Sequence record: PZ502562.2
Direction: 5' to 3' (one strand)
Length of the DNA: 38,725 nt
From: a phage
Numbering within the stretch: position 1 is the stretch's first letter; every line of letters begins with the position of its first letter. Made by a program: the position numbers and the translations under genes. The notes under the pieces were generated by a model, which saw nothing but the letters and a program-made list of their open reading frames with translations, was not told the DNA's origin and did not search any database. Shown here in pieces: positions 5,531-38,725 of the stretch.

Positions 5531-5538
5531 CGTCAAAT

Positions 5539-5561
5539 TAATACGACTCACTATAGAGGGA
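5539..5561 (+). promoter_or_regulatory. T7 promoter phi1.1A
   Basis: taatacgactcactatagaggga. Confidence 0.9.
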
Positions 5562-5562
5562 C

Positions 5563-5603
5563 AAACTCAAGGTCACTTAAACGAGTGGCCTTTATGATTG
5601 ACC
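5563..5603 (+). promoter_or_regulatory. RNase III site R1.1
   Basis: aaactcaaggtcacttaaacgagtggcctttatgattgacc. Confidence 0.8.
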
Positions 5604-5613
5604 TTCTTCTGGT

Positions 5614-5636
5614 TAATACGACTCACTATAGGGAAG
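5614..5636 (+). promoter_or_regulatory. T7 promoter phi1.1B
   Basis: taatacgactcactatagggaag. Confidence 0.9.
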
Positions 5637-5714
5637 ACCTTAAGGTTTAACTTTAAGACCATTAAGTGTTAATTAAAGATTTAAATTAAAGACTACTAAT
5701 AGAGGACTTTAAGT
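5637..5714 (+). promoter_or_regulatory. AT-rich region of the primary replication origin
   Basis: The AT-rich tract ttaaggtttaactttaagaccattaagtgttaattaaagatttaaattaaagac lies just downstream of the paired phi1.1A/B promoters, as at the T7 primary origin. Confidence 0.7.
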
Positions 5715-5843
5715 ATGCGTAACTTCGAAAAGATGATCAAACGTTCTAAACATAACGCTCATGACTTCGAGGCAACCAAGGGTCGCAAGTTGAATAAGAC
5801 TAAGCGCGACAGTTCGCATAAGCGTAGCTGGGAGGGTCAGTAA
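5715..5843 (+). CDS. 1.1: Gene 1.1, small basic protein (42 aa)
   Basis: MRNFEKMIKRSKHNAHDFEATKGRKLNKTKRDSSHKRSWEGQ matches T7 gp1.1. The ORF is too short to appear in the ORF track. Confidence 0.85.
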   Translation: MRNFEKMIKRSKHNAHDFEATKGRKLNKTKRDSSHKRSWEGQ

Positions 5844-5844
5844 G

Positions 5845-6117
5845 ATGGGACGTTTATACAGTGGCAACTTAATAGCATACAAAGACGCTATCGAGAGACT
5901 TAAAGAAGACTATGATGCAAATGTGGTCGTTGAAACTTATCGCTATGAGGACTTCGAACAGCGACGGATGGTTGCCGGTGAGACACTTCGAGTGATATTG
6001 CGGGATGGCTTAATGCTGACCGCTAAGTGTTTCGAGCAGTCAGATGAAGACGTTCGCTGTAATGCACAGACCGAATGGCTCCGTAAGGTACACAGTGACC
6101 TACAGCACTGGAAGTAA
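5845..6117 (+). CDS. 1.2: Gene 1.2, dGTPase (Dgt) inhibitor homolog, divergent allele (90 aa)
   Basis: The position, the N-terminus MGRLYSGNL, the internal DEDV and the C-terminal W-K ending match T7 gp1.2. The central ~60 aa differ strongly. Confidence 0.8.
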   Translation: MGRLYSGNLIAYKDAIERLKEDYDANVVVETYRYEDFEQRRMVAGETLRVILRDGLMLTAKCFEQSDEDVRCNAQTEWLRKVHSDLQHWK

Positions 6118-22806: not shown

Positions 22807-25191
22807 ATGGCACTCATTAGCCAATCAATCAAGAACTTGAAGGGTGGTATCAGTCAACAGCCTGACATCCTTCGTTATCCAGACCAAGGGTCACGCCAAG
22901 TTAACGGTTGGTCTTCGGAGACCGAGGGCCTCCAAAAGCGTCCACCTCTGGTCTTCTTAAAGACCCTTGGAGACAGCGGTGCGTTAGGCCAAGCTCCGTA
23001 CATCCACCTGATTAACCGTGATGAGAACGAACAGTATTACGCTGTGTTCACTGGTAGTGGAATCAGAGTGTTCGACCTTGCTGGTAACGAGAAGCAAGTT
23101 AGGTATCCTAACGGTTCCAACTACATCAAGACAGCTCAGCCACGTAACGACCTGCGGATGGTTACTGTAGCAGACTATACGTTCATCGTTAACCGTAACG
23201 TTGTTGTACAGAAGAACCAAAATTCTGTCAACTTACCGAATTACAACCCTAAGCAAGACGGATTGATTAACGTTCGTGGTGGTCAGTATGGTAGGGAACT
23301 AATTGTACACATTAACGGTAAAGACGTTGCGAAGTATAAAATCCCAGATGGTAGTCAACCTGCACACGTAAATAATACGGATGCCCAATGGTTAGCCGAA
23401 GAGTTAGCCAAGCAGATGCGCACTAACTTATCTGGTTGGACTGTAAGTGTAGGGCAAGGGTTCATCCATGTAACCGCACCAAGCGGTCAACAGATTAACT
23501 CCTTCACGACTAAAGATGGCTACGCAGACCAGTTGATTAACCCTGTTACCCACTACGCTCAGTCGTTCTCTAAGTTACCACCTAATGCTCCTAACGGCTA
23601 CATGGTTAAAATCGTAGGGGACGCCTCTAAGTCTGCCGACCAGTATTACGTTAAGTATGACGCTGAGCGGAAAGTTTGGGCTGAGACTTTAGGTTGGAAC
23701 ACTGAGAACCAAGTTCTATGGGAAACCATGCCACACGCTCTTGTGCGAGCCGCTGACGGGAATTTCGACTTCAAGTGGCTTGAGTGGTCTCCTAAGTCTT
23801 GTGGTGACGTTGACACTAACCCTTGGCCTTCTTTTGTTGGCTCAAGTATCAACGATGTGTTCTTCTTCCGTAACCGCTTAGGATTACTTAGTGGGGAGAA
23901 CATCATATTGAGTCGTACAGCCAAATACTTCAACTTCTACCCTGCGTCCATTGCTAACCTTAGTGATGACGATCCTATAGACGTAGCTGTGAGTACCAAC
24001 CGAATAGCAATCCTTAAGTACGCCGTTCCGTTCTCAGAAGAGTTACTCATCTGGTCCGATGAAGCACAATTCGTACTGACTGCTTCTGGAACTCTCACGG
24101 CTAGGTCGGTTGAGTTGAACCTAACGACTCAGTTTGATGTGCAGGACCAAGCGAGACCTTATGGGATTGGGCGTAACGTCTACTTTGCCAGTCCGAGGTC
24201 CAGCTACACGTCCATCCACAGATACTACGCCGTGCAGGATGTCAGTTCCGTTAAGAACGCTGAGGACATTACAGCACATGTTCCTAACTACATCCCTAAT
24301 GGTGTGTTCAGCATTTGCGGTAGTGGCACTGAAAACTTCTGTTCGGTACTATCTCATGGGGACCCAAGCAAAATCTTCATGTACAAATTCCTGTACCTGA
24401 ATGAAGAGTTACGACAACAGTCGTGGTCACATTGGGACTTTGGGGAAAACGTGCAGGTTCTAGCTTGTCAGAGTATAAGCTCCGATATGTATGTGATTCT
24501 TCGCAATGAGTTCAATACGTTCCTAGCTAGAATCTCTTTCACTAAGAACGCCATTGACTTACAAGGTGAGCCTTATCGTGCCTTTATGGACATGAAGATT
24601 CGCTACACGATTCCTAGTGGAACATACAACGATGATATATTCACTACCGCTATCCATATTCCTACTATTTATGGTGCAAACTTCGGTAGGGGCAAAATCA
24701 CTGTATTGGAGCCTGACGGTAAGATAACAGTATTCGAGCAACCTACGGCTGGATGGCAAAGTGACCCTTGGCTGAGACTCAACGGTAACTTAGAGGGACG
24801 CATGGTGTACATTGGGTTCAACATTAACTTCGTCTATGAGTTCTCTAAGTTTCTCATCAAGCAGACTGCCGACGATGGGTCAACCTCAACGGAAGACATT
24901 GGTCGCTTGCAGTTACGCCGAGCGTGGGTTAACTATGAGGAGTCTGGTACGTTTGACATTTATGTTGAGAACCAATCATCCAACTGGAAGTATACGATGG
25001 CTGGTGCTCGCTTAGGCTCTAACACTCTGAGGGCTGGGCGATTGAACTTAGGGACAGGACAATACCGATTCCCTGTGGTTGGTAACGCCAAGTTCAATAC
25101 AGTGTCTATCTTGTCAGATGAGACTACCCCGCTGAACATCATTGGTTGTGGCTGGGAAGGTAACTACTTACGGAGAAGTTCCGGTATTTAA
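22807..25191 (+). CDS. 12: Gene 12, tail tubular protein B (nozzle) (794 aa)
   Basis: T7 gp12-like (MALISQSIKNLKGGISQQPDILRYPDQGSRQVNGWSSETEGLQKRPP) and the same length. Confidence 0.98.
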   Translation: MALISQSIKNLKGGISQQPDILRYPDQGSRQVNGWSSETEGLQKRPPLVFLKTLGDSGALGQAPYIHLINRDENEQYYAVFTGSGIRVFDLAGNEKQVRYPNGSNYIKTAQPRNDLRMVTVADYTFIVNRNVVVQKNQNSVNLPNYNPKQDGLINVRGGQYGRELIVHINGKDVAKYKIPDGSQPAHVNNTDAQWLAEELAKQMRTNLSGWTVSVGQGFIHVTAPSGQQINSFTTKDGYADQLINPVTHYAQSFSKLPPNAPNGYMVKIVGDASKSADQYYVKYDAERKVWAETLGWNTENQVLWETMPHALVRAADGNFDFKWLEWSPKSCGDVDTNPWPSFVGSSINDVFFFRNRLGLLSGENIILSRTAKYFNFYPASIANLSDDDPIDVAVSTNRIAILKYAVPFSEELLIWSDEAQFVLTASGTLTARSVELNLTTQFDVQDQARPYGIGRNVYFASPRSSYTSIHRYYAVQDVSSVKNAEDITAHVPNYIPNGVFSICGSGTENFCSVLSHGDPSKIFMYKFLYLNEELRQQSWSHWDFGENVQVLACQSISSDMYVILRNEFNTFLARISFTKNAIDLQGEPYRAFMDMKIRYTIPSGTYNDDIFTTAIHIPTIYGANFGRGKITVLEPDGKITVFEQPTAGWQSDPWLRLNGNLEGRMVYIGFNINFVYEFSKFLIKQTADDGSTSTEDIGRLQLRRAWVNYEESGTFDIYVENQSSNWKYTMAGARLGSNTLRAGRLNLGTGQYRFPVVGNAKFNTVSILSDETTPLNIIGCGWEGNYLRRSSGI

Positions 25192-26289: not shown

Positions 26290-28551
26290 ATGAGTAAGAT
26301 TGAATCTGCCCTCCAAGCGGTACAACCGGGACTCTCTCGGTTACGTGGTGGGACTGGTGGTATGGGCTATCGTGCAGCAACCACTCAGGCTGAGCAACCA
26401 AAGTCAAGTCTATTGGACACCATTGGTCGGTTCGCTAAGGCTGGTGCTGATATGTACGCCGCTAAGGAGCAACGAGCACGAGACCTAGCCGATGAGCGCT
26501 CAAACGAGATTATCCGTAAGCTGACTCCTGAGCAACGCCGAGAGGCTCTCAACAAAGGAACACTTCTGTATCAGGATGACCCATACGCTATGGAAGCACT
26601 GCGAGTCAAGACTGGTCGTAACGCCGCGTACCTTGTGGACGATGACGTTATGCAGAAGATTAAAGAGGGTAAATTCCGTACTCGTGAAGCGATGGAAGAG
26701 TATCGTCATAGTCGTCTTCAAGAGGGCGCTAAGTCATACGCTGAGCAGTTCGGTATCGACCCTGATGACGTTGACTATCAGCGTGGTTTCAATGGGGATA
26801 TTACTGAGCGTAACATCTCACTGTATGGGGCACATGATAGCTTCTTGAGCCAGCAAGCTCAGAAGGGTGCAATCATGAACAGCCGAGTGGAACTCAACGG
26901 TGTCCTTCAAGACCCTGACATGCTTCGCCGCCCAGACTCTGCTGACTTCTTTGAGAAGTACATCGACAATGGTCTGGTCACTGGGGCAATCCCATCTGAC
27001 GCTCAAGCCACACAGCTTATAAGCCAAGCGTTCAGTGACGCTTCTAGCCGTGCTGGTGGTGCTGACTTCCTGATGCGGGTTGGTGACAAGAAGGTAACAC
27101 TTAACGGTGCCACTACTACCTATAAGGAACTTATGGGCGAAGAGCAGTGGAATGCCCTTATGGTGACAGCCCAGAGAGCACAATACGACAACGATGCGAA
27201 ACTGAACGAGAAGTTTCAACTAGATGTCAACTCTGCGTTGTTCGTAGACGACCCTCGTGTTGGTTGGGAGAAGCTCCAAGGAATCAAGGCTGAGCTAGAT
27301 AAATACCAGCCGGGAGAGCAGATGACCCCTCAACGCGCCACGCTTATAGAGGCCCAGAAGCAACTAAGAGCCAAGATGGTAGAGTGGGCCAAGAACGAGG
27401 CCAAAGCACTTGATGAGGCTCAGAAGGCCGATAATAAGTTTAGGGTTATTGACGCTCAGTATCAGAAGCGAATCAACGGAGAGTGGGTCTCTACGGACTT
27501 TAAGGACATGCCTACAAACGATAACACTGGGGAGTTCAAGCATAGCGACATTGTAAACTACGCTAACAAGAAGCTGGCAGACATAGACGCTATGGACATC
27601 CCAGATGGAGCAAAAGATAGACTCAAACTACAGTACCTGCAATCAGACTCTAAGGACGGGCCTTTCAGGACTGCCATAGGAACGATGGTTCAAGATGCGG
27701 CTCAGGAGTGGTCTTCTTCTGTGATGAACGGTAAGTTAGCAGATAAGACTCCAGCGATGGATGCCTTACGTAGAATCCGTAACGCAGACCCATACCTAAT
27801 AGCGGCACTGTACCCTGAGCAGGCTGAGCTATTCTTGACGATGGACTTAGCTGACCGACAGGGTGTTGATGTGCAGGAGTTGATTGATGCTGAACGTCAG
27901 ATTGCTACACGTTCTAAGGAGCAACGATTCGAAGATGATATAGCCTTTGAGAAATCACTTAATGACTCTAAAGTTCCAGAGATAGCTAATATGCCGACAG
28001 AACTACGGGGGCTTGCTCGTAAGATTTATGACTCGGTTAAGTACCGCACCAACAACGTTGACATGGCTATGACCGAGATGCAGAAGCTCCTTAAGGAGTC
28101 CACTACTACCTTTAACGATGATAGCCCAGACAACGAGGGAGTCATTGGGGTAATTCCGAGGAACTATCTACAGGTAAACGATGACCCTAAATCTTGGAAG
28201 CAAGGTAAGGATATTATCGACGCTGCCCTTAAAGGAATCATAGCGGCTAACCCAAGTATGGCCTCTGATAAGATGACCGTATCGGTAATCGGGAAGTCTA
28301 TCTACATCATGCCAACTACGGGGACTGGTCCACGGGTTCGTTACGACAAGGAGATGTTGTCCAAGGTCTGGAAGGAAACACAAGAGCGTCTCGCAACGGA
28401 AGCCGTTGAGAAGGCCCGTGATAAAGCTATGGCTGATGCCAACAAGCGAGCACCTATAGTCGCCGCTAAGAAAGCTCGTGAGGCTGGCGCTAAACGAGTC
28501 CGAGATAAACGTAAACAGACTCCGAAGTTCATCTATGGACGCAAGGAGTAA
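26290..28551 (+). CDS. 15: Gene 15, internal virion protein C (753 aa)
   Basis: T7 gp15-like at both ends, with a more divergent middle. Confidence 0.97.
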   Translation: MSKIESALQAVQPGLSRLRGGTGGMGYRAATTQAEQPKSSLLDTIGRFAKAGADMYAAKEQRARDLADERSNEIIRKLTPEQRREALNKGTLLYQDDPYAMEALRVKTGRNAAYLVDDDVMQKIKEGKFRTREAMEEYRHSRLQEGAKSYAEQFGIDPDDVDYQRGFNGDITERNISLYGAHDSFLSQQAQKGAIMNSRVELNGVLQDPDMLRRPDSADFFEKYIDNGLVTGAIPSDAQATQLISQAFSDASSRAGGADFLMRVGDKKVTLNGATTTYKELMGEEQWNALMVTAQRAQYDNDAKLNEKFQLDVNSALFVDDPRVGWEKLQGIKAELDKYQPGEQMTPQRATLIEAQKQLRAKMVEWAKNEAKALDEAQKADNKFRVIDAQYQKRINGEWVSTDFKDMPTNDNTGEFKHSDIVNYANKKLADIDAMDIPDGAKDRLKLQYLQSDSKDGPFRTAIGTMVQDAAQEWSSSVMNGKLADKTPAMDALRRIRNADPYLIAALYPEQAELFLTMDLADRQGVDVQELIDAERQIATRSKEQRFEDDIAFEKSLNDSKVPEIANMPTELRGLARKIYDSVKYRTNNVDMAMTEMQKLLKESTTTFNDDSPDNEGVIGVIPRNYLQVNDDPKSWKQGKDIIDAALKGIIAANPSMASDKMTVSVIGKSIYIMPTTGTGPRVRYDKEMLSKVWKETQERLATEAVEKARDKAMADANKRAPIVAAKKAREAGAKRVRDKRKQTPKFIYGRKE

Positions 28552-28577
28552 CTAAAGGCTACATAAGGAGGCCCTAA

Positions 28578-31500
28578 ATGGATAAGTACGATAAGAACGT
28601 ACCAAGTGAGTATGATGGTCTGTTCCAGAAGGCGGCTGATGCCAACGGGGTCTCTTATGACCTTTTACGTAAAGTCGCTTGGACAGAATCACGGTTTCAA
28701 CCCACAGCCAAGTCCAAGACTGGACCATTAGGCATGATGCAGTTCACCAAGGCAACAGCTAAGGCTATGGGACTTAATGTAACCGATGGGCCTGATGATG
28801 ACCGACTGGTTCCAGAGTTGTCTATCAACGCTGCTGCCAGACATCTTGCTGAGTTGGTGAATAAATTCGACGGAGATGAACTTAAGGCTGCACTTGCATA
28901 TAACCAAGGTGAGGGGAGACTAGGCGCTCCCCAGCTTGAGGCATACTCTAAGGGTGACTTCTCAGCTATCTCCGACGAGGGTCGCAACTACATGCGAAAC
29001 CTCATGGATGTGGCTAAGTCTCCAATGGCTGGACAGTTGGAAGCGTTCGGAGGCATTACCCCAAAGGGTAAAGGCATCCCTTCTGATGTTGGTTTAGGAG
29101 ACATTAAGGTCGAAGGGAAGCGTAAAGTAACAGATGCTATCCCAGAGTCAACTGGATTGGACATTAAAGGTATCGAACAGGAGGCTCCGGCGAAATCATT
29201 CGCTACGGACTTTTGGGACCATCATAAACAGAAACCATCTGAGTATGACGACCGCTCAACATTCTTCGGATTCAAAGATGCTGCAAGTGCCGAAATTGAC
29301 AACTCAGTCCTCGGCATGGCCTTCCGTGCTGGTCGCCTCGATAATAGTTTTGATGTGTTTAAGGATGTTATCACGCCTACGCGTTGGAACTCTACTATCT
29401 GGACTCCTGAGGAACTAGAGAGGATTCGAACAGAAGTTAAGAACCCAGCGTATCTAAATGTTGTTACAGGCGGTTCCCCTGAGAACCTTGACGACCTAAT
29501 TAGATTAGCCAACGAGAACTATGAGAATGACCTAAAGAAAGCTGACGCAGGTATCGGGGCACAGCTTTCCGCTGGCATTGTTGGTGCGGCATTCGACCCA
29601 CTATCGTATGTTCCGTTGGTTGGTGTGACAGGTAAGGGCTTTAAGTTAATCAATAAGGCTCTTGTGGTAGGTGCTGAGAGTGCAGCCATTAACATGGCCT
29701 CAGAAGGGTTGCGAACGTCTATAGTTGGTGGAGACGCTAATTATACTGGCGCGGTACTAGGTGGTCTTGTGTTTGGGGCAGGAATGTCTGCAATCAGTGA
29801 CGCTATAACCGCTGGGTTGAGACGTAGCAAACCTGAGGCTGAGTTCAACAACGAGTTCGTCGGGCCGTTGATGCGTATGGAAGCTCGCGAGACTGCCTTT
29901 AACGCTAACTCTGAGGACTTGTCTAAGATGAGCACAGGCAGCATCAACTTCGACAGAGAGTACGGTGGGGTTAACTACGCACCATTGGATACCGAGCCGG
30001 GTGCAGTTGTCCTCCCTCAAGGTCAAATCCTCAGCGACACTAACCCACTGAACCCTCAGACCCTCAGTGAGTTTGAGGCGATAAATCCTGAACGTGCAGC
30101 AAGAGGTATCTCCTTAGGTGGGTTCACTGAGATTGGCCTTAAGACACTGCGCTCTGAGAACACGGGAGTTCGCTCCATTGCTCGTGACCTAGTGCGCTCT
30201 CCAACTGGTATGGAATCGGGGTCTAACGGTAAGTTCGGCTCGACCGCTGATGATATTCATAGTCGGCTATCATCCAACGATAACCGCGATTGGAACCTAT
30301 ACTATGATAAGATGCGGGAAGTCATGAAAGACCCTGAGTTCACAACAGGTGCGCCTAAGATGAGCAAAGCAGAGGCCGTTGAGTCCATCGACCGCAAAAT
30401 TGCGCTGGCAATAGAGCACCCTGAGTTACAGGTAAACTTGTCTCCCAAAGAGATGGACCTGATGCGCCACGTTAAGGGTCACTACGACCTCAAGCGTGAA
30501 CTTATGGAAAACCCTGCTGTGTTCGGCAATCCAAAGGCGGTTAGCATCTTCCCCGGCAGTCGCAACAAAGGCACATACATTCCGAGAGTATATGACACCC
30601 AATCGAAGAATTTATATATTCAACGTTTGGGGAGCCGAGAGGCTTTACAGGAGGCTATCGCTGAAAGTTCGCTTGCGTCATACTACCTGCGTCCAGAAGT
30701 TAAGGCGCGTATTGATGAGCACCTGATGGAAGTCAATGGACTCAAGTCAACTAAAGAAGTAACACATGAAATGGTTCGAAAGTATGCGATGGATAAGGCT
30801 TACGGTATATCCCATACAGACCAATTCTCGTCGTCTTCTATTGTTGATGAGAACATCACGGGGCTTGTCGGCATCGAGAACAATAACTTTCTGGAAGCAC
30901 GTAACCTCTTTGACACCGATGTGCCAACCACGTTACCGGATGGCTCTACGTTTTCAGTAGATGACATTCGCGTGTTCAGCCAGCGCATCCTTATGCCAGC
31001 ATATGACCGTCGTGTAAATGGTGATATTGCTATCATTGGTAGCTCTGGTAAAACTACCAAGGAACTCAAGGATGAGATTATGGTACTGAGTAAGCAGGCC
31101 GAAGGTAACGGGAAGTTGAAGGGAGAAGTAGAAGCTCTCAAGGATACCGTGAAGATTCTAACTGGTCGCGCCCGTCGCAGCCCAGAAGGTGCTTTAGGGA
31201 CAGCTTTACGCTCTCTGAACGACATGACGTTCTTTGCTAAGAACTTCTATATGCCTCTCCAGAACTTCACGGAGATTGCCGGTATGCTAGTCAAAGGTAA
31301 TGTCTCTGCTGTGACTCACGGAATCCCTGTGATTAACGATTGGGTTAACCGAAGTAAACCAATGCGAGCCTCTGAGATTAAAGAACTCCACAGTATGGTG
31401 TTCGGTAAGGAACTTGACCAGCTAATCCGTCCGAGTCGCGAAGACCACATTAGCAGACTTAGGGAGTCTACAGACACCAACGCTGTGTTGGCTAATGTAG

Positions 31501-32552
31501 TTGGTACTCTTCGTTTCGGTACTCAGGAGTTAGCGGCTCGTTCCCCGTGGACGGTTATGCTAAATGGCACCACTAACTACATCATTGACGCTGCCCGTCA
31601 AGGTGTCCTTGGTGATATTGCAAGTGCGGTATTATCAGGGACTGGTGCTAAGTTTGGTAAGGCAAATTATCTTAAGTCTGCATCAATAAGTCCTGAGCAG
31701 TGGAATGGTATCAAGCAACTATTTCGAGACCACGCCACTCGTGATTCTGGAGGTAAGTTCACAATCAGGGACAAAAGAGCGTTCACCTATGACCCTCGCA
31801 CAATGGACCTGTGGAGACTTGCTGACAAAGTTGCAGGTGAGACAATCATGCGACCGCACAAGATTTCCTCACAGGACTCAGTTGCGTATGGGGCAGGCGT
31901 TAAGATGGTGATGCAGTTTAAGAACTTCGTCATTAAGTCTCTTAACGCCAGATTCGTGCGTAGCTTCTATGAGGCCACAAAGAACAACCGTGCGTTAGAC
32001 CAAGCGTTAACACACATTGTTGCCTGTGGACTAGCTGGTGGCTACTACGTTGGGCAGGCGCATCTAAAGGCCGCTTCCTTACAGGATGACAAACGTAAGG
32101 AGTACCTAAAGATGGCACTAGACCCGAAGATGATTGCCCATGCATCCATCTCTCGTAGCTCACATTTAGGTTCGCCACTTAGCATCTACGATATGATCGC
32201 TGGGGTGTTTGGTGATGACACCTATAAGTACACACGCTCCACGGTACTACCGAAGCAACCAGAAGAACGCGATCGCACAAAAGCGGTCACAGGTCGTCAG
32301 GTTACTGGTATGATTAGTGGTGCTTTAGGCGAGCAGATTCCTGCTTTAGGGTTCGCAGGGCAGGTTGGAGGTACGGCACTTAATGCTGTATCACTACTGA
32401 AAGCGCCCAACAAGGCTACCGAGATGGAGTTCCGTACAGGGATGTTTAATACAATGCGTGAGATTGTTCCGAACGACCCTATCACGCAGCAACTCATTAT
32501 GAAAATTTATGAGGCCAATGGTATCCACATCAAGGAGACACCTAGGAAATAA
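28578..32552 (+). CDS. 16: Gene 16, internal virion protein D with N-terminal lytic transglycosylase domain (1324 aa)
   Basis: The SLT motif VAWTESRF.PTAKSKTGPLGMMQF lies near the N-terminus. Collinear with T7 gp16. Confidence 0.98.
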   Translation: MDKYDKNVPSEYDGLFQKAADANGVSYDLLRKVAWTESRFQPTAKSKTGPLGMMQFTKATAKAMGLNVTDGPDDDRLVPELSINAAARHLAELVNKFDGDELKAALAYNQGEGRLGAPQLEAYSKGDFSAISDEGRNYMRNLMDVAKSPMAGQLEAFGGITPKGKGIPSDVGLGDIKVEGKRKVTDAIPESTGLDIKGIEQEAPAKSFATDFWDHHKQKPSEYDDRSTFFGFKDAASAEIDNSVLGMAFRAGRLDNSFDVFKDVITPTRWNSTIWTPEELERIRTEVKNPAYLNVVTGGSPENLDDLIRLANENYENDLKKADAGIGAQLSAGIVGAAFDPLSYVPLVGVTGKGFKLINKALVVGAESAAINMASEGLRTSIVGGDANYTGAVLGGLVFGAGMSAISDAITAGLRRSKPEAEFNNEFVGPLMRMEARETAFNANSEDLSKMSTGSINFDREYGGVNYAPLDTEPGAVVLPQGQILSDTNPLNPQTLSEFEAINPERAARGISLGGFTEIGLKTLRSENTGVRSIARDLVRSPTGMESGSNGKFGSTADDIHSRLSSNDNRDWNLYYDKMREVMKDPEFTTGAPKMSKAEAVESIDRKIALAIEHPELQVNLSPKEMDLMRHVKGHYDLKRELMENPAVFGNPKAVSIFPGSRNKGTYIPRVYDTQSKNLYIQRLGSREALQEAIAESSLASYYLRPEVKARIDEHLMEVNGLKSTKEVTHEMVRKYAMDKAYGISHTDQFSSSSIVDENITGLVGIENNNFLEARNLFDTDVPTTLPDGSTFSVDDIRVFSQRILMPAYDRRVNGDIAIIGSSGKTTKELKDEIMVLSKQAEGNGKLKGEVEALKDTVKILTGRARRSPEGALGTALRSLNDMTFFAKNFYMPLQNFTEIAGMLVKGNVSAVTHGIPVINDWVNRSKPMRASEIKELHSMVFGKELDQLIRPSREDHISRLRESTDTNAVLANVVGTLRFGTQELAARSPWTVMLNGTTNYIIDAARQGVLGDIASAVLSGTGAKFGKANYLKSASISPEQWNGIKQLFRDHATRDSGGKFTIRDKRAFTYDPRTMDLWRLADKVAGETIMRPHKISSQDSVAYGAGVKMVMQFKNFVIKSLNARFVRSFYEATKNNRALDQALTHIVACGLAGGYYVGQAHLKAASLQDDKRKEYLKMALDPKMIAHASISRSSHLGSPLSIYDMIAGVFGDDTYKYTRSTVLPKQPEERDRTKAVTGRQVTGMISGALGEQIPALGFAGQVGGTALNAVSLLKAPNKATEMEFRTGMFNTMREIVPNDPITQQLIMKIYEANGIHIKETPRK

Positions 32553-32572
32553 TACGACTCACTATAGGGAGA
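32550..32572 (+). promoter_or_regulatory. T7 class III promoter phi17
   Basis: taatacgactcactatagggaga. Confidence 0.95.
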
Positions 32573-32624
32573 GGTGAAAGAATCTTCTCACTGTAGTCTC
32601 TTAGATTTACTTTAAGGAGGTCAA

Positions 32625-34466
32625 ATGGCTAACGTAATTAAAACCGTTTTGACTTACCAGTTAGATGGCTCCACTCATGATTTTAATATCCCGTTTGAGT
32701 ATCTAGCCCGTAAGTTCGTAGTGGTGACTCTTATTGGTGTAGACCGTAAGGTCCTTACGCTTAATACAGACTATCGCTTTGCTACACGTACTACCATCTC
32801 ACTGACTAAGGCTTGGGGTCCATCCGATGGCTACACGACCATCGAGTTACGCCGAGTAACCTCCACGACCGACCGCTTGGTTGACTTTACGGACGGCTCA
32901 ATCCTCCGTGCGTATGACCTTAACGTTGCTCAGATTCAAACGATGCACGTAGCGGAGGAGGCGCGCGACCTGACTGCTGATACAATCGGTGTCAATAATG
33001 ACGGTCACTTGGATGCCCGTGGTCGGCGTGTAGTGAACGTTGGTAATGCGGTAGACCGCGGGGATGCGGTTAACTTGGGGATGCTTCAAGATTGGGACAA
33101 CTCCGCCCTGAATCAAGCAGACCGTTCGGAGAAGGAGGCTGATAGGGCAGAGGCCGCTGCGTCCCAAGCTGACAGTAGCGCTGCTAAGGCTCTTTCTTCT
33201 GAGAAAAGTGCTTCCACAAGTGCTACTAACGCACTCGCTTCGGAGAATGCAGCAAAGGCATCACAAGTGGCTGCGGCTGGTAGCGCAAGTTCGTCAGAAC
33301 AATCTAAGAACGAGGCAAATGCCTACAAAGAGGCCGCGCAAACTGCCGCGGACACCGCGTCCAACCATGAGGATAAAGCCAAGGAGTACATGGAGAGGGC
33401 CGAGGCTGTCGCCTGCTCCAAGGAGAATCCGGTATCTGAGATAACGTTCACTACTGGTGGGTCATTAGGTTCTGAAAGGGCCAAGGTCCGGGACACAGTT
33501 ACCAACCGCATCTACTACTGGATTGGGACCTTCCCCAAGGTAATACCTGAAAACTCCGTAGGAGAAGACCTTATAAAGGCAGATGGTGACCTGTGGGATT
33601 CTCTGCAAAACCCTAACGGTAAGTGGGTAGACGCGGGTAACAGCGTCCCTGCACTAAGAACCACATTAGGAGAAGGAGTACCCTTCAAGTACGAGACGTA
33701 CCCGAAGGATAACCTCAACGCCATTACTGAGCGTCAATCCAATAGGGTGCGTGTGGCTACGTGGAACATTTGGGGAGCAGGTGCTCAAGGTAACTTTGGT
33801 TCACTGGGTTCTGCCGATAGGATAAAGGCCCTACAGGAGCGATGGCTCAACCAAAAGCTAGACTACGTAGGTCTACAGGAGTGCTATTTCAACGACACAT
33901 TCTACCCATTCTCCATGTATACAATAGGTTCTCTCCACACTGCATTCGTACAGACGTGCGAACCTTATGAGTCTGGAATAACCATCCTGGATTTCGACTA
34001 CGGTACGGGATGTGTAAGCAGTGGCGCTGACGTGAAGATGTCTGGAGGAATCTATAAGGACAGCATCGGAAGCTCAGTGGATAAGGAGCGCCGAGCGTGG
34101 ACTCGCACAGAGACTACCATTAGGGGCCGTAAGTACGTAATATACAATACACATCTCAGCTATGATAGGGCGCGATTCACTCAGCAGCAGTCAGAGTTGA
34201 ACAACCTCCTATTAGCAGAGACTAACCCACAAGTAATCGTAATGGGAGATTTCAACCACGACGACATCACGTTGTTTCAGCCATTACTTGATGCCGGATG
34301 GTCTATGGGCCAGAACAAAGAGTTTAATACTAACAACACCGGCGGAAAATGGCACATTGATAATATACTGTACAAAGGGTTCTCTAAGAGAGTTGATAGA
34401 GGAACTCAGGACGCACCAAGTTCTCTATCTGACCATAAATTATTCTATGTGGAACTGGAGGTATAA
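32625..34466 (+). CDS. 17: Gene 17, chimeric tail fibre (613 aa): T7 N-terminal tail-attachment domain, Ala/Ser/Glu-rich coiled-coil shaft, unassigned ~105-aa domain, and a C-terminal EEP-superfamily phosphoesterase domain
   Basis: Aa 1-~140 are nearly identical to T7 gp17 (MANVIKTVLTYQLDGS..DFNIPFEYLARKFVVVTLIGVDRKVLT). Aa ~160-265 are a low-complexity helical repeat. Aa 374-613 carry the EEP motifs VATWNIWG, GLQEC, YNTHLS, MGDFNHD, HIDNILY and LSDHKLF. Confidence 0.9.
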   Translation: MANVIKTVLTYQLDGSTHDFNIPFEYLARKFVVVTLIGVDRKVLTLNTDYRFATRTTISLTKAWGPSDGYTTIELRRVTSTTDRLVDFTDGSILRAYDLNVAQIQTMHVAEEARDLTADTIGVNNDGHLDARGRRVVNVGNAVDRGDAVNLGMLQDWDNSALNQADRSEKEADRAEAAASQADSSAAKALSSEKSASTSATNALASENAAKASQVAAAGSASSSEQSKNEANAYKEAAQTAADTASNHEDKAKEYMERAEAVACSKENPVSEITFTTGGSLGSERAKVRDTVTNRIYYWIGTFPKVIPENSVGEDLIKADGDLWDSLQNPNGKWVDAGNSVPALRTTLGEGVPFKYETYPKDNLNAITERQSNRVRVATWNIWGAGAQGNFGSLGSADRIKALQERWLNQKLDYVGLQECYFNDTFYPFSMYTIGSLHTAFVQTCEPYESGITILDFDYGTGCVSSGADVKMSGGIYKDSIGSSVDKERRAWTRTETTIRGRKYVIYNTHLSYDRARFTQQQSELNNLLLAETNPQVIVMGDFNHDDITLFQPLLDAGWSMGQNKEFNTNNTGGKWHIDNILYKGFSKRVDRGTQDAPSSLSDHKLFYVELEV

Positions 34467-34467
34467 C

Positions 34468-35277
34468 ATGACCAACAAACTACTAGTAAACACTGAGGTA
34501 GCTCTCGCGGATGGGGACGCTCTATCCCTAGAGATGGTTCGTATGCGAAACGAACTGACAATCGCTAAGGCGGTTCAGGGTGAGACCCATTTCTACAAGA
34601 GTGTTAAGGATATGGGCATTACCGGGAAGGTTACGCTACTCTCCATTGCGAAGAGGATGCGCCGACGCTCTGTCCTCATCGTGAGTGTGTACGGAGGGAC
34701 CAGTGATGGTCCTGACCTTCCGCTCCCTTACTTCAACTCAGGGACTCCTGTTTATATGTCCGGCATACTTTGGGCGTACAAGATGGAGGATGAGAAAAAA
34801 GTCTATTTCGAGTGGCGTAACGAGAACATGACTGCCCGGTGTAACTATAACGCACACGTTGAGGACAAGGTTACTCCGTGGGTGTTCGATATGCTACCTA
34901 AGATGAATGCTACGGCTGGTCCGGGATACTGGCAGAACAGGATGTCAAATATTTGGGTTCCGGGGACGTATTACTTCACTAGAGACCAGATGAACGGCTT
35001 CACCGATAGACCTGTACTTGGAGGGGGCTACTTGGAGGTAATGAATGCAGGTAACTCACCTACTTCTGACAGAAACTATGTATTCACCTTAAACACTTCG
35101 GACCAACACAAGTGGTCCCGTCAAAATGATGGGGATTGGAGAATCATCCCTGTGTGCTTCACCGCAGCCGTACATGACAGCCAGATGCGCGTGGGTGATA
35201 TGAAAGTGGCAAGCAATGGTATGCTCCATATCAGAGTAAGCTCCAGTAAAGTGGGCCAGATTGCCACCGTTGGATAA
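34468..35277 (+). CDS. Hypothetical 269-aa protein with no T7 counterpart, inserted between gene 17 and the holin gene; candidate tail-fibre partner, second receptor-binding protein, or chaperone/inhibitor of the EEP domain
   Basis: The ATG at 34468 lies 1 nt after the gene 17 TAA, with a ggagg Shine-Dalgarno sequence 7 nt upstream. The frame is open to 35277. The protein is rich in Trp/Tyr/Gly/Asn, with no signal peptide or TM segment that I can see. The tracked start at 34288 would overlap gene 17 by 180 nt and lacks an RBS. Confidence 0.8.
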   Translation: MTNKLLVNTEVALADGDALSLEMVRMRNELTIAKAVQGETHFYKSVKDMGITGKVTLLSIAKRMRRRSVLIVSVYGGTSDGPDLPLPYFNSGTPVYMSGILWAYKMEDEKKVYFEWRNENMTARCNYNAHVEDKVTPWVFDMLPKMNATAGPGYWQNRMSNIWVPGTYYFTRDQMNGFTDRPVLGGGYLEVMNAGNSPTSDRNYVFTLNTSDQHKWSRQNDGDWRIIPVCFTAAVHDSQMRVGDMKVASNGMLHIRVSSSKVGQIATVG

Positions 35278-35290
35278 ATCAGGAGGTATC

Positions 35291-35494
35291 ATGTTATCCT
35301 TGGATTTTAATAATGAAGTCATCAAGGCTGCCCCCATTGCGGGGGCCGTTGGTGCTGACGCCACGTCTAGACTCATTTGGGGACTCTCCCTGAACGAGTG
35401 GTTCTACATTGCCGCTATCGCCTACACAGTGGTTCAGATTGGTGCCAAGGTAGTCGATAAGATGATTGACTGGAAGAAAGCCAATAAGGAGTAA
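35291..35494 (+). CDS. 17.5: Gene 17.5, class II holin (67 aa)
   Basis: MLSLDFNNE.IKAAPI...LSLNEWFY.A.IAYTVVQIGAKVVDKMIDWKKANKE is T7 gp17.5-like. An aggagg Shine-Dalgarno sequence lies upstream. Confidence 0.95.
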   Translation: MLSLDFNNEVIKAAPIAGAVGADATSRLIWGLSLNEWFYIAAIAYTVVQIGAKVVDKMIDWKKANKE

Positions 35495-35497
35495 TAT

Positions 35498-35767
35498 ATG
35501 GAAAAAGATAAGAGCCTCATTACGTTCTTAGAGATGTTGGACACTGCGATGGCTCAGCGTATGCTTGCGGACCTTTCGGACCCTGAGCGCCGTTCTCCGC
35601 AACTATACAACGCCATCAACAAACTGTTAGACCGCCACAAGTTCCAGATTGGTAAGTTGCAGCCGGATGTTCACATCTTGGGTGGCCTTGCTGGTGCTCT
35701 TGAAGAGTACAAAGAGAAAGTCGGAGATAACGGTCTTACTGATGACGATATTTACACTTTACAGTGA
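35498..35767 (+). CDS. 18: Gene 18, terminase small subunit (89 aa)
   Basis: MEKDKSLITFLEMLDTAMAQRMLADLSD.ERRSPQLYNAINKLLDRHKFQIGKLQPDVHILGGLAGALEEYKEKVGDNGLTDDDIYTLQ is T7 gp18-like. Confidence 0.97.
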   Translation: MEKDKSLITFLEMLDTAMAQRMLADLSDPERRSPQLYNAINKLLDRHKFQIGKLQPDVHILGGLAGALEEYKEKVGDNGLTDDDIYTLQ

Positions 35768-35768
35768 T

Positions 35769-35812
35769 ATACTCAAGGCCACTACATATAGTGGTCTTTA
35801 TGGATGTCATTG
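35769..35812 (+). promoter_or_regulatory. RNase III site R18.5
   Basis: atactcaaggccactacatatagtggtctttatggatgtcattg. Confidence 0.7.
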
Positions 35813-35861
35813 TCTACACGAGATGCTCCTACGTGAAATCTGAAAGTTAACGGGAGGCATT

Positions 35862-36305
35862 ATGCTGGAATTTTTACGTAAGCTGGTACCTTGGGTTCTC
35901 GCTGGGATGCTATTCGGATGGGGATGGCAACTTGGGGCGGACTCAATGGACGCCAAGTGGAAACAGGAGGTACAGAATGAGTACGTTAAGAGAGTTGAGG
36001 CTACAGCGAGCACTCAAAGAGCACTCAATGAAATATCGGCTAAGTATCAAGAAGACCTTGCCGCGCTGGAAGGGAGCACTGATAGGATTATTTCTGATTT
36101 GCGTAGCGACAATAAGCGGCTGCACGTCAGAGTCAAAACTACCGGAACCTCCGATGGTAAGTGTGGATTCGAGCCTGATGGTAGAGCCGAACTTGACGAG
36201 CGAGATGCTAAAAGTATTCTCGCAGTGACCCAAAGAGGTGACGCGTGGATTCGCGCTCTACAGGATACCATACGCGAGCTACAGCATAAGCAGGAGGTTA
36301 AGTAA
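35862..36305 (+). CDS. 18.5: Gene 18.5, i-spanin (Rz-like) (147 aa)
   Basis: N-terminal TM segment [16 protein letters not shown]7 gp18.5-like. Confidence 0.95.
35977..36228 (+). CDS. 18.7: Gene 18.7, o-spanin (Rz1-like lipoprotein) embedded in the +1 frame of 18.5 (83 aa)
   Basis: [45 protein letters not shown] carries the lipobox ATISGC and is T7 gp18.7-like. The tracked start at 35932 is an extension. Confidence 0.85.
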   Translation: MSTLRELRLQRALKEHSMKYRLSIKKTLPRWKGALIGLFLICVATISGCTSESKLPEPPMVSVDSSLMVEPNLTSEMLKVFSQ

Positions 36306-38077
36306 TGAGTAAAGGTACATCCGCTCAGTCCAATCGTAATGCGCTCGTTGTGGCGCAACTAAAGGGTGACTTCGTGGCGTTCCTGTTCGTCTTATGGAAG
36401 GCGTTAAACCTACCAGTGCCCACTAAGTGTCAAATTGATATGGCTAAGGTACTGGCGAATGGGGACAACAAGAAGTTCATCTTACAGGCTTTCCGTGGTA
36501 TCGGTAAGTCGTTCATCACTTGTGCGTTCGTTGTGTGGTCCTTATGGAGAGACCCTCAGTTGAAGATACTTATCGTATCGGCCTCTAAGGAACGTGCAGA
36601 CGCTAACTCCATCTTCATCAAGAACATCATTGACCTGCTGCCGTTTCTCAGTGAGTTGAAGCCGAGACCCGGACAGCGTGACTCTGTGATTAGCTTTGAT
36701 GTTGGTCCTGCTAGTCCTGACCACTCTCCTAGTGTGAAGTCAGTGGGTATCACTGGTCAGTTAACAGGTAGCCGTGCTGACATTATCATTGCGGATGACG
36801 TTGAGATTCCGTCTAACAGTGCGACTATGGGTGCCCGTGAGAAGCTATGGACTCTCGTTCAGGAGTTCGCTGCGTTGCTTAAACCACTACCAACTTCTCG
36901 TGTTATCTACCTTGGTACACCACAAACTGAGATGACTCTCTATAAGGAACTTGAAGATAACCGTGGGTACACCACTATCATCTGGCCTGCTCTGTACCCA
37001 AGGACACACGAAGAGAACCTTTACTACTCTCAGCGTCTGGCACCAATGCTCCGTGCGGAGTACGAGGAGAATCCTGAGGCACTCGCTGGGACTCCAACAG
37101 ACCCTGTGCGATTCGACCGTGATGACCTCCGTGAACGTGAGTTGGAATACGGCAAGGCGGGCTTTACGCTACAGTTCATGCTTAACCCGAACCTTAGTGA
37201 TGCCGAGAAGTACCCTCTGAGGCTCCGTGACGCTATCGTAGCGGCCTTAGACTTAGAGAAGGCACCAATGCATTACCAGTGGCTTCCGAACCGTCAGAAC
37301 ACCATTGAGGACCTTCCTAACGTGGGTCTTAAGGGTGATGACCTGCACACATACCATGAGTGCTCGAATAACTCTGGTCAGTATCAACAGAAGATTCTGG
37401 TCATTGACCCAAGTGGTCGCGGTAAGGATGAAACAGGTTACGCGGTACTGTACACTCTAAACGGTTACATCTACCTAATGGAAGCTGGTGGTTTCCGTGA
37501 TGGCTACTCAGATAAGACCCTTGAGTTGCTCGCTAAGAAAGCTAAGCAATGGGGAGTCCAGACGGTTGTCTACGAGAGTAACTTCGGTGACGGTATGTTT
37601 GGTAAGGTGTTCAGCCCTATCCTTCTTAAACACCACAACTGCGCTATGGAAGAGATTCGTGCTCGTGGTATGAAGGAGATGCGTATTTGTGATACCCTTG
37701 AGCCAGTCATGCAGACTCACCGCCTTGTCATTCGAGATGAGGTCATTAGGGCCGACTATCAGTCAGCTCGCGACATAGACGGTAAGCATGACGTTAAGTA
37801 TTCACTGTTCTATCAGATGACTCGTATCACTCGTGAGAAAGGCGCTCTGGCACACGATGACCGATTGGATGCCCTTGCGTTAGGCGTTGAGTATCTCCGT
37901 GAGTCCATGCAGTTGGATTCCGTTAAGGTAGAGGGTGAGGTACTTTCAGACTTCCTTGAGGAACACATGATGCGTCCTACGGTGGCTGCAACACACATCA
38001 TTGAGATGTCCGTTGGCGGTATTGATGTGTACTCTGAGGACGATGAGGGATACGGTACGTCTTTCATTGAGTGGTGA
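36305..38077 (+). CDS. 19: Gene 19, terminase large subunit (590 aa)
   Basis: Nearly identical to T7 gp19 from [62 protein letters not shown] (Walker A) onward. Confidence 0.98.
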
Positions 38078-38158
38078 TTTATGCAGTAAGATTGCATAGG
38101 GATGCACTATAGACCACGGATGGTCAGTTCACTAAGTTACTGAAAAGACACGATAAAT

Positions 38159-38181
38159 TAATACGACTCACTATAGGGAGA
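38159..38181 (+). promoter_or_regulatory. T7 promoter phiOR
   Basis: taatacgactcactatagggaga. Confidence 0.95.
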
Positions 38182-38335
38182 GGAGGGACGAAAGGTTACT
38201 ATATAGATACTGAATGAATACTTATAGAGTGCATAAAGTATGCATAGTAGTGTACCTAAAGTGACCTCTAAGAATGGTGATTATATTGTATTAATATCAC
38301 CTTAACTTAAAGTCCAACATAAAGGGAGGAGACTC

Positions 38336-38485
38336 ATGTTCCGCTTATTGTTGAACCTACTGCGGCATAGAGTCACCTATCGCTTTCTTGTGGTACTTTG
38401 TGCTGCCCTTGGGTACGCATCGCTTAACGGAGACCTCAGTTCACTGGAGTCTGCCGTTTGCTCTTTACTCACTTGTAGTGATTAA
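38336..38485 (+). CDS. 19.5: Gene 19.5 (49 aa)
   Basis: MFRLLLNLLRHRVTYRFLVVLCAALGYASL.GDLSSLES.VCS.LTCSD is T7 gp19.5-like. A gggagga Shine-Dalgarno sequence lies upstream. Confidence 0.85.
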   Translation: MFRLLLNLLRHRVTYRFLVVLCAALGYASLNGDLSSLESAVCSLLTCSD

Positions 38486-38559
38486 GGTCTTCCTGACCGA
38501 CTGACGGCTCACCGAGGGATTCAGCGGTATGATTGCATCACACCACTTCATCCCTATAG

Positions 38560-38670
38560 AGTCAAGTCCTAAGGTATACCCGTAAAGAGCCTCTAATGGT
38601 CTATCCTAAGGTCTATACCTAAAGATAGGCCATCCTATCAGTGTCACCTAAAGAGTTGCTTATAGAGGGC
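38560..38670. repeat. Right-end CCTAAAG/CCTAAGG motif array next to the terminal repeat junction
   Basis: Repeated cctaaggt, cctaaaga and cctaaagag motifs, parallel to the T7 right-end repeats implicated in concatemer processing. Confidence 0.7.
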
Positions 38671-38725
38671 CTAAGGAGTCCCTAGAGGGTCCTTTAAAAT
38701 ATACCATAAAAATCTGAGTGACTAT

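Follow-up and report, generated by a model that had tools for sequence, protein, structure and literature searches.

Exchange of tail-fibre cassettes is routine in T7-like phages, whose fibre protein gp17 consists of a tail-attachment domain, a coiled-coil shaft and, in T7, pyramid and tip domains that bind rough lipopolysaccharide (LPS). The closest described counterpart of the locus presented here is that of the Citrobacter phages CR8 and CR44b (Toribio et al. 2014, PMC4038870; HG818824, HG818823), in which two genes lie between gene 16 and the holin gene: a gp17 with a C-terminal endonuclease/exonuclease/phosphatase (EEP) domain, and a gene for a protein of about 270 residues. The same two-gene layout is found in the phage sequence PZ502562.2 (the window, i.e. 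the whole stretch of 38,725 nucleotides (nt) that was analysed), a 38.7 kb T7/T3-like genome (Teseptimavirus) with exact T7-consensus promoters by pattern scan. The EEP part of its gp17 shares 40–41% identity with CR8 and CR44b over ~317 residues, and the product of the downstream open reading frame (ORF2) shares 43–45%. The module of the window is a new member of the functionally uncharacterised CR8-type gp17/gp17.01, carried on a T7-type N-terminus and shaft. As judged from sequence comparison and structural models, it is very probably a swapped receptor module of two genes, one of which encodes an active EEP enzyme. The full reading, in which the EEP domain of this swapped module would depolymerise a phosphate-bridged O-antigen and ORF2 would be docked on it as the binding tip, is given a probability of about 0.55.

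Gene 17 occupies nt 32625–34466 (613 amino acids, aa) and ORF2 nt 34468–35277 (269 aa from its ATG). The elements of the region are as follows.

32550..32567, plus strand: T7-class promoter at the phi17 position, exact consensus TAATACGACTCACTATAG (pattern scan).
32625..33025, plus strand: gp17 residues 1–134, tail-attachment domain, part of the backbone (Pfam Phage_T7_tail; identity with T7, EG1 and Yanou).
33026..33434, plus strand: gp17 residues 135–270, Ala/Ser/Glu-rich coiled-coil shaft, start of the swapped part (junction, PHROG).
33435..33755, plus strand: gp17 residues 271–377, neck and linker to the enzyme domain (tailspike-N-type motif Y-x-W-x-G-x-x-P-K-x-[IV]-P).
33756..34466, plus strand: gp17 residues 378–613, domain of predicted EEP fold (PF03372, AlphaFold2 (AF2)/Foldseek).
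34468..35277, plus strand: ORF2 (gp17.01-like, 269 aa), N-terminal helix and beta-rich head (predicted fold of receptor-binding-protein type).
35278..35290, plus strand: right junction, 13-nt spacer with the holin ribosome-binding site (alignment; blastn resumption at 35275–35291).
35291..35494, plus strand: gene 17.5, class II holin, first backbone gene past the swap (Pfam Phage_holin_2_2, E = 1e-31).

The boundaries of the swapped segment are sharp at the nucleotide level. Blastn against the phages EG1 and Yanou gives 92–93% identity up to nt 33025, and the alignment is back at 92–94% from nt 35291 (EG1) or 35275 (Yanou). The T7 alignment extends to nt 33071 (71%, gp16/gp17-N region) and starts again at nt 35281 with 91.6% identity, with no blastn match to T7 between these positions. 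A multiple alignment of four genomes places the left junction at 33025/33026, right after ...GATGCCCGTGGTCG, at codon 134/135 of gp17; the right junction lies within the 13 nt between the ORF2 stop codon (35275–35277) and the holin ATG at 35291, giving a swapped segment of 2.25 kb (nt 33026 to about 35280). A hairpin-forming GTAGTCCACGGATGGACT upstream of the holin ribosome-binding site is common to T7 (36300–36343), EG1 and Yanou and is absent from the window, as the swapped segment extends to 13 nt from the start codon of the holin gene.

An earlier reading of the window from its letters alone (the sequence-only reading) had described a gp17 nearly identical to T7 up to about residue 140, sharp mosaic borders and a return to T7-like sequence at the holin gene, and the alignments agree with it on all three counts. 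Residues 1–135 of gp17 are 96% identical to those of T7 gp17, with 5 differences; Pfam PF03906 (Phage_T7_tail) covers residues 1–155 with E = 6e-66, and the alignment of gp17 to T7, EG1 and Yanou fails past residue ~135–150. Its further statement that the stretch in between has no T7 equivalent is correct for the sequence and too strong for the architecture, in which the coiled coil at residues 135–270 is the counterpart of the T7 gp17 shaft; PHROG tail-fibre profiles span residues 1–267. The proposed horizontal acquisition of a fibre-distal module, grafted onto a conserved attachment domain, is borne out by the sharp junctions, by flanks ~92% identical to other Teseptimavirus genomes and by relatives of the insert in unrelated backbones. 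The best protein relatives (41–49% identity) are found in Caroctavirus, Vectrevirus, Kayfunavirus and Kuttervirus, and a distant-mode blastn search of 50,697 phage records gave no nucleotide relative of the insert beyond its first ~160 nt. The cassette had no nucleotide match in 5,426 complete E. coli genomes.

Compared with T7 and T3, the window retains the tail-attachment domain, the coiled-coil shaft, the gene position and the phi17 promoter. It differs from T7 in that an enzyme domain and a separate partner take the place of the pyramid and tip domains, and in that T7 has no gene between 17 and 17.5. The CR8 gp17 is shorter (485 aa), does not have the long coiled-coil shaft, and its N-terminal domain is only distantly related to that of T7; at the nucleotide level CR8 and the window have no usable similarity, with one 66-nt match at 77%.

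The EEP domain is recognised by PF03372, which matches gp17 residues 378–604 with 47.3 bits (cut-off 24.5) over profile positions 1–225 of 225. The set of catalytic and metal-binding residues is complete (N381, E419, H510, D542, N544, D579, D603 and H604), and these residues lie in the motifs WN381, QE419, NTH510, GD542FN544, ID579 and SD603H604. They are invariant in 15 tail-fibre and tailspike homologues that share 24–48% identity with the window protein. In the AF2 model, the core of the domain has a predicted local distance difference test score (pLDDT) above 90 and appears as the four-layer alpha/beta sandwich expected of the fold. Foldseek places it close to TDP2, nSMase2, the B. cereus sphingomyelinase, nocturnin and CNOT6L (probability 1.00, E ~1e-12, 14–20% identity); a sequence search of the EEP part against the PDB gave no match. 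No beta-helix protein, as would be expected for a depolymerase of that fold, is among the structural matches listed, the model being an EEP sandwich. The neck that precedes the domain is matched weakly by Pfam Tail_spike_N (E = 0.0019, residues 270–311), a family that also precedes EEP in the prophage homologues, and AF2 confidence is low at model residues 45–84, corresponding to gp17 ~315–354 in the neck.

The start codon of ORF2 is located 1 nt past the gp17 stop codon, and the final codons of gene 17 contain its GGAGG ribosome-binding site. A longer form of ORF2 starting at TTG 34288 (329 aa, with 60 codons overlapping the end of gene 17) was considered and rejected, as the homologues align from ATG 34468; since they begin at this ATG, which has its own GGAGG, the extension at 34288–34467 is probably untranslated. 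ORF2 has no family in Pfam or NCBIfam and belongs to PHROG 22156, of unknown function; only 76 of 1.84 billion cluster representatives belong to this small family. In the model (pLDDT 74.5), a beta-rich head follows an N-terminal part of poor definition that includes a helix at residues 19–35. With this moderate model, Foldseek finds the receptor-binding heads of phi11, phi812, P68, NF5 and R-pyocin fibres, and the ORF2 profile also matches the NF5 receptor-binding protein (RBP; 9m7x, E = 2e-6) and the P68 fibre by sequence. The predicted fold of ORF2 is probably of the phage receptor-binding-head type. The proteins of the Staphylococcus phages phi11 (Gp45, 5efv), P68 (6iab) and phi812 (9euf) and of phage NF5 (9m7x) are 450–650 aa long, as against 269 aa for the stand-alone ORF2; they share only 10–17% identity with it, and the hosts of the ORF2 family are Gram-negative.

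Genes that directly follow fibre genes often encode chaperones, the gene found at this place in Cedecea phage Yanou is annotated as a 'tail fiber assembly protein', and ORF2 is without a Pfam family. These observations would suit an explanation in which ORF2 is a fibre assembly chaperone rather than a receptor-binding tip, or the EEP domain a binding scaffold (pseudo-enzyme), or both. We consider this quite unlikely. The invariance of all catalytic residues across divergent homologues is unlike a pseudo-enzyme, and CR8 gp17.01 is annotated as a component of the virion on the basis of mass spectrometry (GenBank note). The ORF2 model matches receptor-binding heads and not chaperones: there was no Pfam or NCBIfam match to tail-fibre chaperones (Tfa, gp38 or gp57 type), its neighbours being RBPs and fibres, and a T5 pb1 fragment with an intramolecular chaperone is matched by Foldseek at E = 0.18 only. 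The longer homologues of E. coli phages BEK2 and W22, with ~150–190 additional C-terminal residues, and the BEK2 note on O-antigen binding (see below) also argue against a chaperone.

The pairing of the two genes was followed in ten other loci, which span lytic phages of five groups and prophages of E. coli and Proteus. Protein searches found EEP and ORF2 adjacent and in the same order in the Citrobacter phages CR8 and CR44b (Caroctavirus), in CrRp3 (Vectrevirus), in the Cronobacter phage vB_CtuP_B1 (Kayfunavirus) and in the Salmonella phage Se-J (Kuttervirus). An ORF lies directly 3' of the EEP gene in all ten loci and is a clear homologue of ORF2 in eight; in the Proteus phage PM116 and the Pseudomonas phage PA28, an ORF of ~215 aa follows the EEP gene and its similarity to ORF2 is weak. 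In nine of the ten the ORF begins at -4 to +10 nt relative to the EEP stop codon, and in W22 the two genes are separated by 84 nt. Comparison with the ORF2 profile by hhalign gives probabilities of 100, 99.8, 98.7, 98.1 and 75.8%, and the divergence of EEP and that of ORF2 roughly track each other across the loci: the identities to the window are 40% (EEP part, E = 2e-79) and 45% (ORF2, E = 1e-75) for CR8, and 48% and 49% for CrRp3, where EEP is a protein of its own, 289 aa long, with its gene behind a fibre gene.

In phages BEK2 (Drexlerviridae) and W22 (Justusliebigvirus), the N-terminal ~220 residues of the protein after EEP are homologous to ORF2 (hhalign 98.7% and 98.1%). These proteins are 402 aa (BEK2, 4908–6116) and 411 aa (W22, 4808–6043) long and have a C-terminal extension of ~150–190 residues, showing that the partner protein is itself modular; a note in the BEK2 record mentions binding to polymannose O-antigen, as in T5. 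Most homologues of the EEP domain in the databases are tailspikes from prophages of Morganella, Proteus, Providencia and E. coli, with Tail_spike_N or P22 head-binding adaptors. Among GTDB representative genomes, the ORF2 patterns had no match and the EEP patterns found one marginal locus in a metagenome-assembled genome, while a scan of IMG/VR returned four loci, consistent with the known isolates CrRp3, CR8, CR44b and Se-J.

The evidence on the target of the module comes from prophage neighbourhoods and from the O-types of the hosts. In E. coli 1919D3 (NZ_CP046006.1 1396238–1409422), an EEP spike and a 266-aa homologue of ORF2 (hhalign 100%) adjoin gtrC-gtrB-gtrA and an integrase, and the pair also adjoins gtrC-gtrB-gtrA in a Proteus mirabilis prophage. 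Temperate phages that first use and later modify the O-antigen typically have a spike gene beside gtrABC, the genes for its glucosylation. The 1919D3 locus neighbours a gene of the Form_Nir_trans family, which we take to be yfdC, with dsdCXA-like genes opposite, presumably the argW / KpLE1 (CPS-53) position of K-12; an insertion sequence (IS) element lies directly upstream of the spike, so the locus has the appearance of a prophage remnant rather than an intact phage.

All three Citrobacter rodentium podophages with sequenced genomes (CR8, CR44b and CrRp3, of two subfamilies) carry the module. The O-antigen of C. rodentium is of the E. coli O152 type (PMC12501221), in which WfgC, an enzyme of the Stealth family, forms alpha-GlcNAc-(1-P-6)-alpha-Glc (PMC3989065). 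Such sugar-P-sugar bridges occur in only 6 of the 182 E. coli O groups, namely O84, O152, O160, O172, O173 and O181 (PMC9912281). The DNA of the 1919D3 pair was found in only one of the 5,426 complete E. coli genomes, in near as well as distant mode, and the O locus of 1919D3 (NZ_CP046006.1 1764877–1768803) contains GDP-fucose genes along with genes for an 'O173 family O-antigen polymerase' (PGAP) and for a protein with a 'stealth conserved region 3 domain'. Relatives of its Stealth gene are detectable in 12 of the 5,426 genomes, 5 of them near-identical. This very rare module thus occurs in two independent host lineages that share a very rare glycan feature. E. coli SE11, reportedly O152:H28, has a Stealth gene with 98.3% identity to that of 1919D3, and in a strain labelled O152:H23 the identity is only 63.5%. 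The serogroup labels of these O loci may be inconsistent between sources; as O152 and O173 are both phosphate-bridged, this leaves the conclusion on the O-antigen unaffected.

In the best explanation, nt 33026 to about 35280 are a horizontally exchanged host-recognition module that has replaced the T7-type fibre shaft and tip. A pattern scan found no T7-class promoter inside the cassette; gene 17 and ORF2 are transcribed from the phi17 promoter, and ORF2 is translationally coupled to gp17. The trimeric fibre would bear the EEP domains at its distal end, and ORF2 would dock on them via its conserved N-terminal helix, forming a receptor-binding tip that binds glycan. The EEP domain is proposed to be a metal-dependent phosphodiesterase that cuts the hexose-1-phosphate-6-hexose bridges (the Stealth-type linkage) of the host O-antigen or of a similar surface glycan, and hydrolysis of the bridges would be the depolymerase action that lets the phage reach the outer membrane. 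If the EEP domain is such a phosphodiesterase, the host of the window phage would carry a phosphate-bridged glycan. It is also possible, and we put this forward tentatively, at somewhat less than even odds, that the module represents a new class of depolymerase: an endo-phosphodiesterase for Stealth-type O152/O173-like O-antigens, working as an obligate two-protein unit with a lectin-like tip partner.

Several points weigh against the O-antigen reading. The nearest solved EEP structures include nucleic-acid enzymes (TDP2, CNOT6L) besides sphingomyelinases, at 14–20% identity, and since both kinds are among the neighbours the fold is no guide to the substrate. Both AF2 models are of moderate quality (pLDDT 80 for the gp17 part and 74.5 for ORF2) and were built from shallow alignments. 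The link to E. coli is a single prophage remnant, and that to Citrobacter a single host species. Finally, the pair also occurs in BEK2 and BEK3, whose recorded host is E. coli K514, which we take to be a rough derivative of K-12 without O-antigen; some members of the family may therefore act on another phosphodiester or phosphomonoester, such as the link between enterobacterial common antigen (ECA) and its lipid, or core phosphates.

The K514 records favour an alternative in which the swap is real and ORF2 is still the binder, and the EEP domain acts on another envelope substrate: it would attack an outer-membrane lipid in the manner of a phospholipase C or sphingomyelinase, cleave the ECA–lipid phosphodiester, or take phosphate or phosphoethanolamine off lipid A or the LPS core. 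Sphingomyelinases of bacterial and human origin are among the top structural matches (8j2f, 2uyr), and ECA-PG is bound to its lipid by a phosphodiester (PMC10743462). This explanation is nevertheless unlikely, as it does not account for the place of the pair beside gtrABC in prophages, nor for the rare phosphate-bridged O-antigens of the typable hosts (PMC12501221, PMC9912281). The rarity of the module (one of 5,426 E. coli genomes, four loci in IMG/VR) also contrasts with the core, lipid A and ECA, which are near-universal in Enterobacterales.

A second alternative takes the EEP domain as a virion-borne, DNase I-like nuclease that clears extracellular DNA in biofilms or at the cell surface, the link to the O-antigen being a coincidence. 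Its position in the receptor-binding slot, behind Tail_spike_N or P22 head-binding adaptors, and its constant pairing with a protein of predicted RBP fold make this very improbable, even though TDP2 and further EEP enzymes that process nucleic acids head the Foldseek matches and many members of PF03372 are nucleases. The divergence among homologues (24–48% identity) resembles that of serotype-specific RBPs and is unlike that of an enzyme with a constant substrate; the association with host O-types is a further point against a nuclease, and a tail-tip DNase would lie near the phage's own ejected DNA. The alternatives explain the gtrABC adjacency and the pattern of host O-types less well than the reading of the EEP domain as an O-antigen depolymerase.

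The module shares several features with the enzymatic tailspikes of phages specific for O-antigens or capsules, such as the P22-type beta-helix spikes, which are glycosidases and lyases, and the SGNH esterase G7C gp63.1. In these, too, an enzyme occupies the receptor-binding position and is exchangeable between phage families, and the prophage homologues of the EEP domain have the same surroundings, with Tail_spike_N or P22 head-binding adaptors and gtrABC neighbours. The differences are that the domain in the window is a predicted EEP alpha/beta sandwich rather than a beta-helix or SGNH fold, that a partner is always co-encoded, and that the bond predicted to be cut is a phosphodiester rather than a glycosidic or ester bond. 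In the Klebsiella KP32-type and the K1-5/SP6-type two-RBP systems, reportedly as set out by Latka et al. in 2019, a second, separately encoded protein is attached to an anchored first fibre. The EEP proteins of CrRp3 and PM116 resemble this arrangement, in that each is a short protein whose gene comes second, behind that of a longer one; unlike in those systems, there is no evidence of a T4gp10-like branching domain, and ORF2 is a constant companion and not an independent depolymerase.

The swap itself is ordinary for this phage group, whereas the content of the cassette is a rare and functionally unstudied type of RBP. Phosphate-joined glycans are common in Proteus, Providencia, Morganella and several encapsulated pathogens. 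Literature searches found no EEP/PF03372 tail fibre and no phosphodiesterase tailspike, the slash-containing family name not being searchable as a phrase, and a 2023 review of the strategies of coliphages against the O-antigen lists depolymerase, lyase and deacetylase spikes only (PMC10743462). If the proposed activity is correct, the EEP phosphodiesterase would be a further catalytic class beside the glycosidases, lyases and deacetylases of that review. Its targets would be O-antigens and capsules with phosphate-joined repeat units, known from C. rodentium and from a small number of E. coli and Shigella serogroups. Such an enzyme could be used for glycan analysis or for the stripping of capsules or O-antigens. 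The presence of the module would predict the glycan chemistry of a host, serving as a genomic marker that connects a phage RBP type to a glycan, and the locus would be a worked example of a two-protein RBP unit moving intact between podo-, sipho- and myovirus backbones.

The sequence-only reading had also pointed to foreign codon usage in the cassette. The nine in-frame strings with the Arg codons AGG or AGA (AGR) or the Ile codon ATA that it quoted from gene 17 are all present, and the count of at least 7 AGR codons in the downstream ORF is matched. AGR makes up 10 of the 22 Arg codons in the cassette part of gp17 and 7 of 16 in ORF2, that is 17/38 in the cassette, compared with 72/585 in the other genes (Fisher p = 2e-6); ATA makes up 9/29 of the Ile codons in the cassette and 51/593 in the other genes (p = 9e-4). 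When the cassette is compared with equally sized windows of the backbone, its AGR fraction of 0.42 exceeds that of every one of them (maximum 0.35). The rest of the codon-usage comparison is less distinctive: GC content at third codon positions (GC3) shows no shift that could be a sign of foreign origin (0.54 in the cassette vs 0.52), nor does overall GC content, and the global synonymous-codon G statistic of the cassette (98.6) is reached by 8% of the backbone windows. The codon signal is real for AGR and ATA, is modest as a signal of whole codon usage, and names no donor. The contrast drawn with core genes that use CGT/CGC almost exclusively is accurate for gene 10 and fails for gp12 (22807–25191), gp16 and gene 18.5 (35862–36305), in which AGR accounts for 12/40, 15/77 and 6/12 of the Arg codons, respectively. 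Given the counts in gp12 and gene 18.5, the rare Arg codons are not confined to the cassette; in gene 18.5, which encodes an Rz-like spanin, their use may reflect the embedded 18.7 reading frame.

The backbone of the window is closest to the phages ESh6, CICC 80001, IME390, EG1 and Yanou, at ~92% nucleotide identity, and EG1 and Yanou are ~92–94% identical to the window on both sides of the swap. Relative to T7 the backbone is itself a mosaic, with gp15/gp16/gp17-N (27967–33071) ~71% identical and the part from the holin to the right end (35281–38725) 91.6% identical. Minus-strand ORFs in the region are short, at most 95 aa; genes on this strand are not expected in T7-like genomes. The gp17/ORF2 region occurs at 99% identity in the Logan assemblies of SRR18693185 (a contig of 39,208 nt) and SRR18693238 (a contig of 5,558 nt), both of them public runs, whose accession numbers lie close together.

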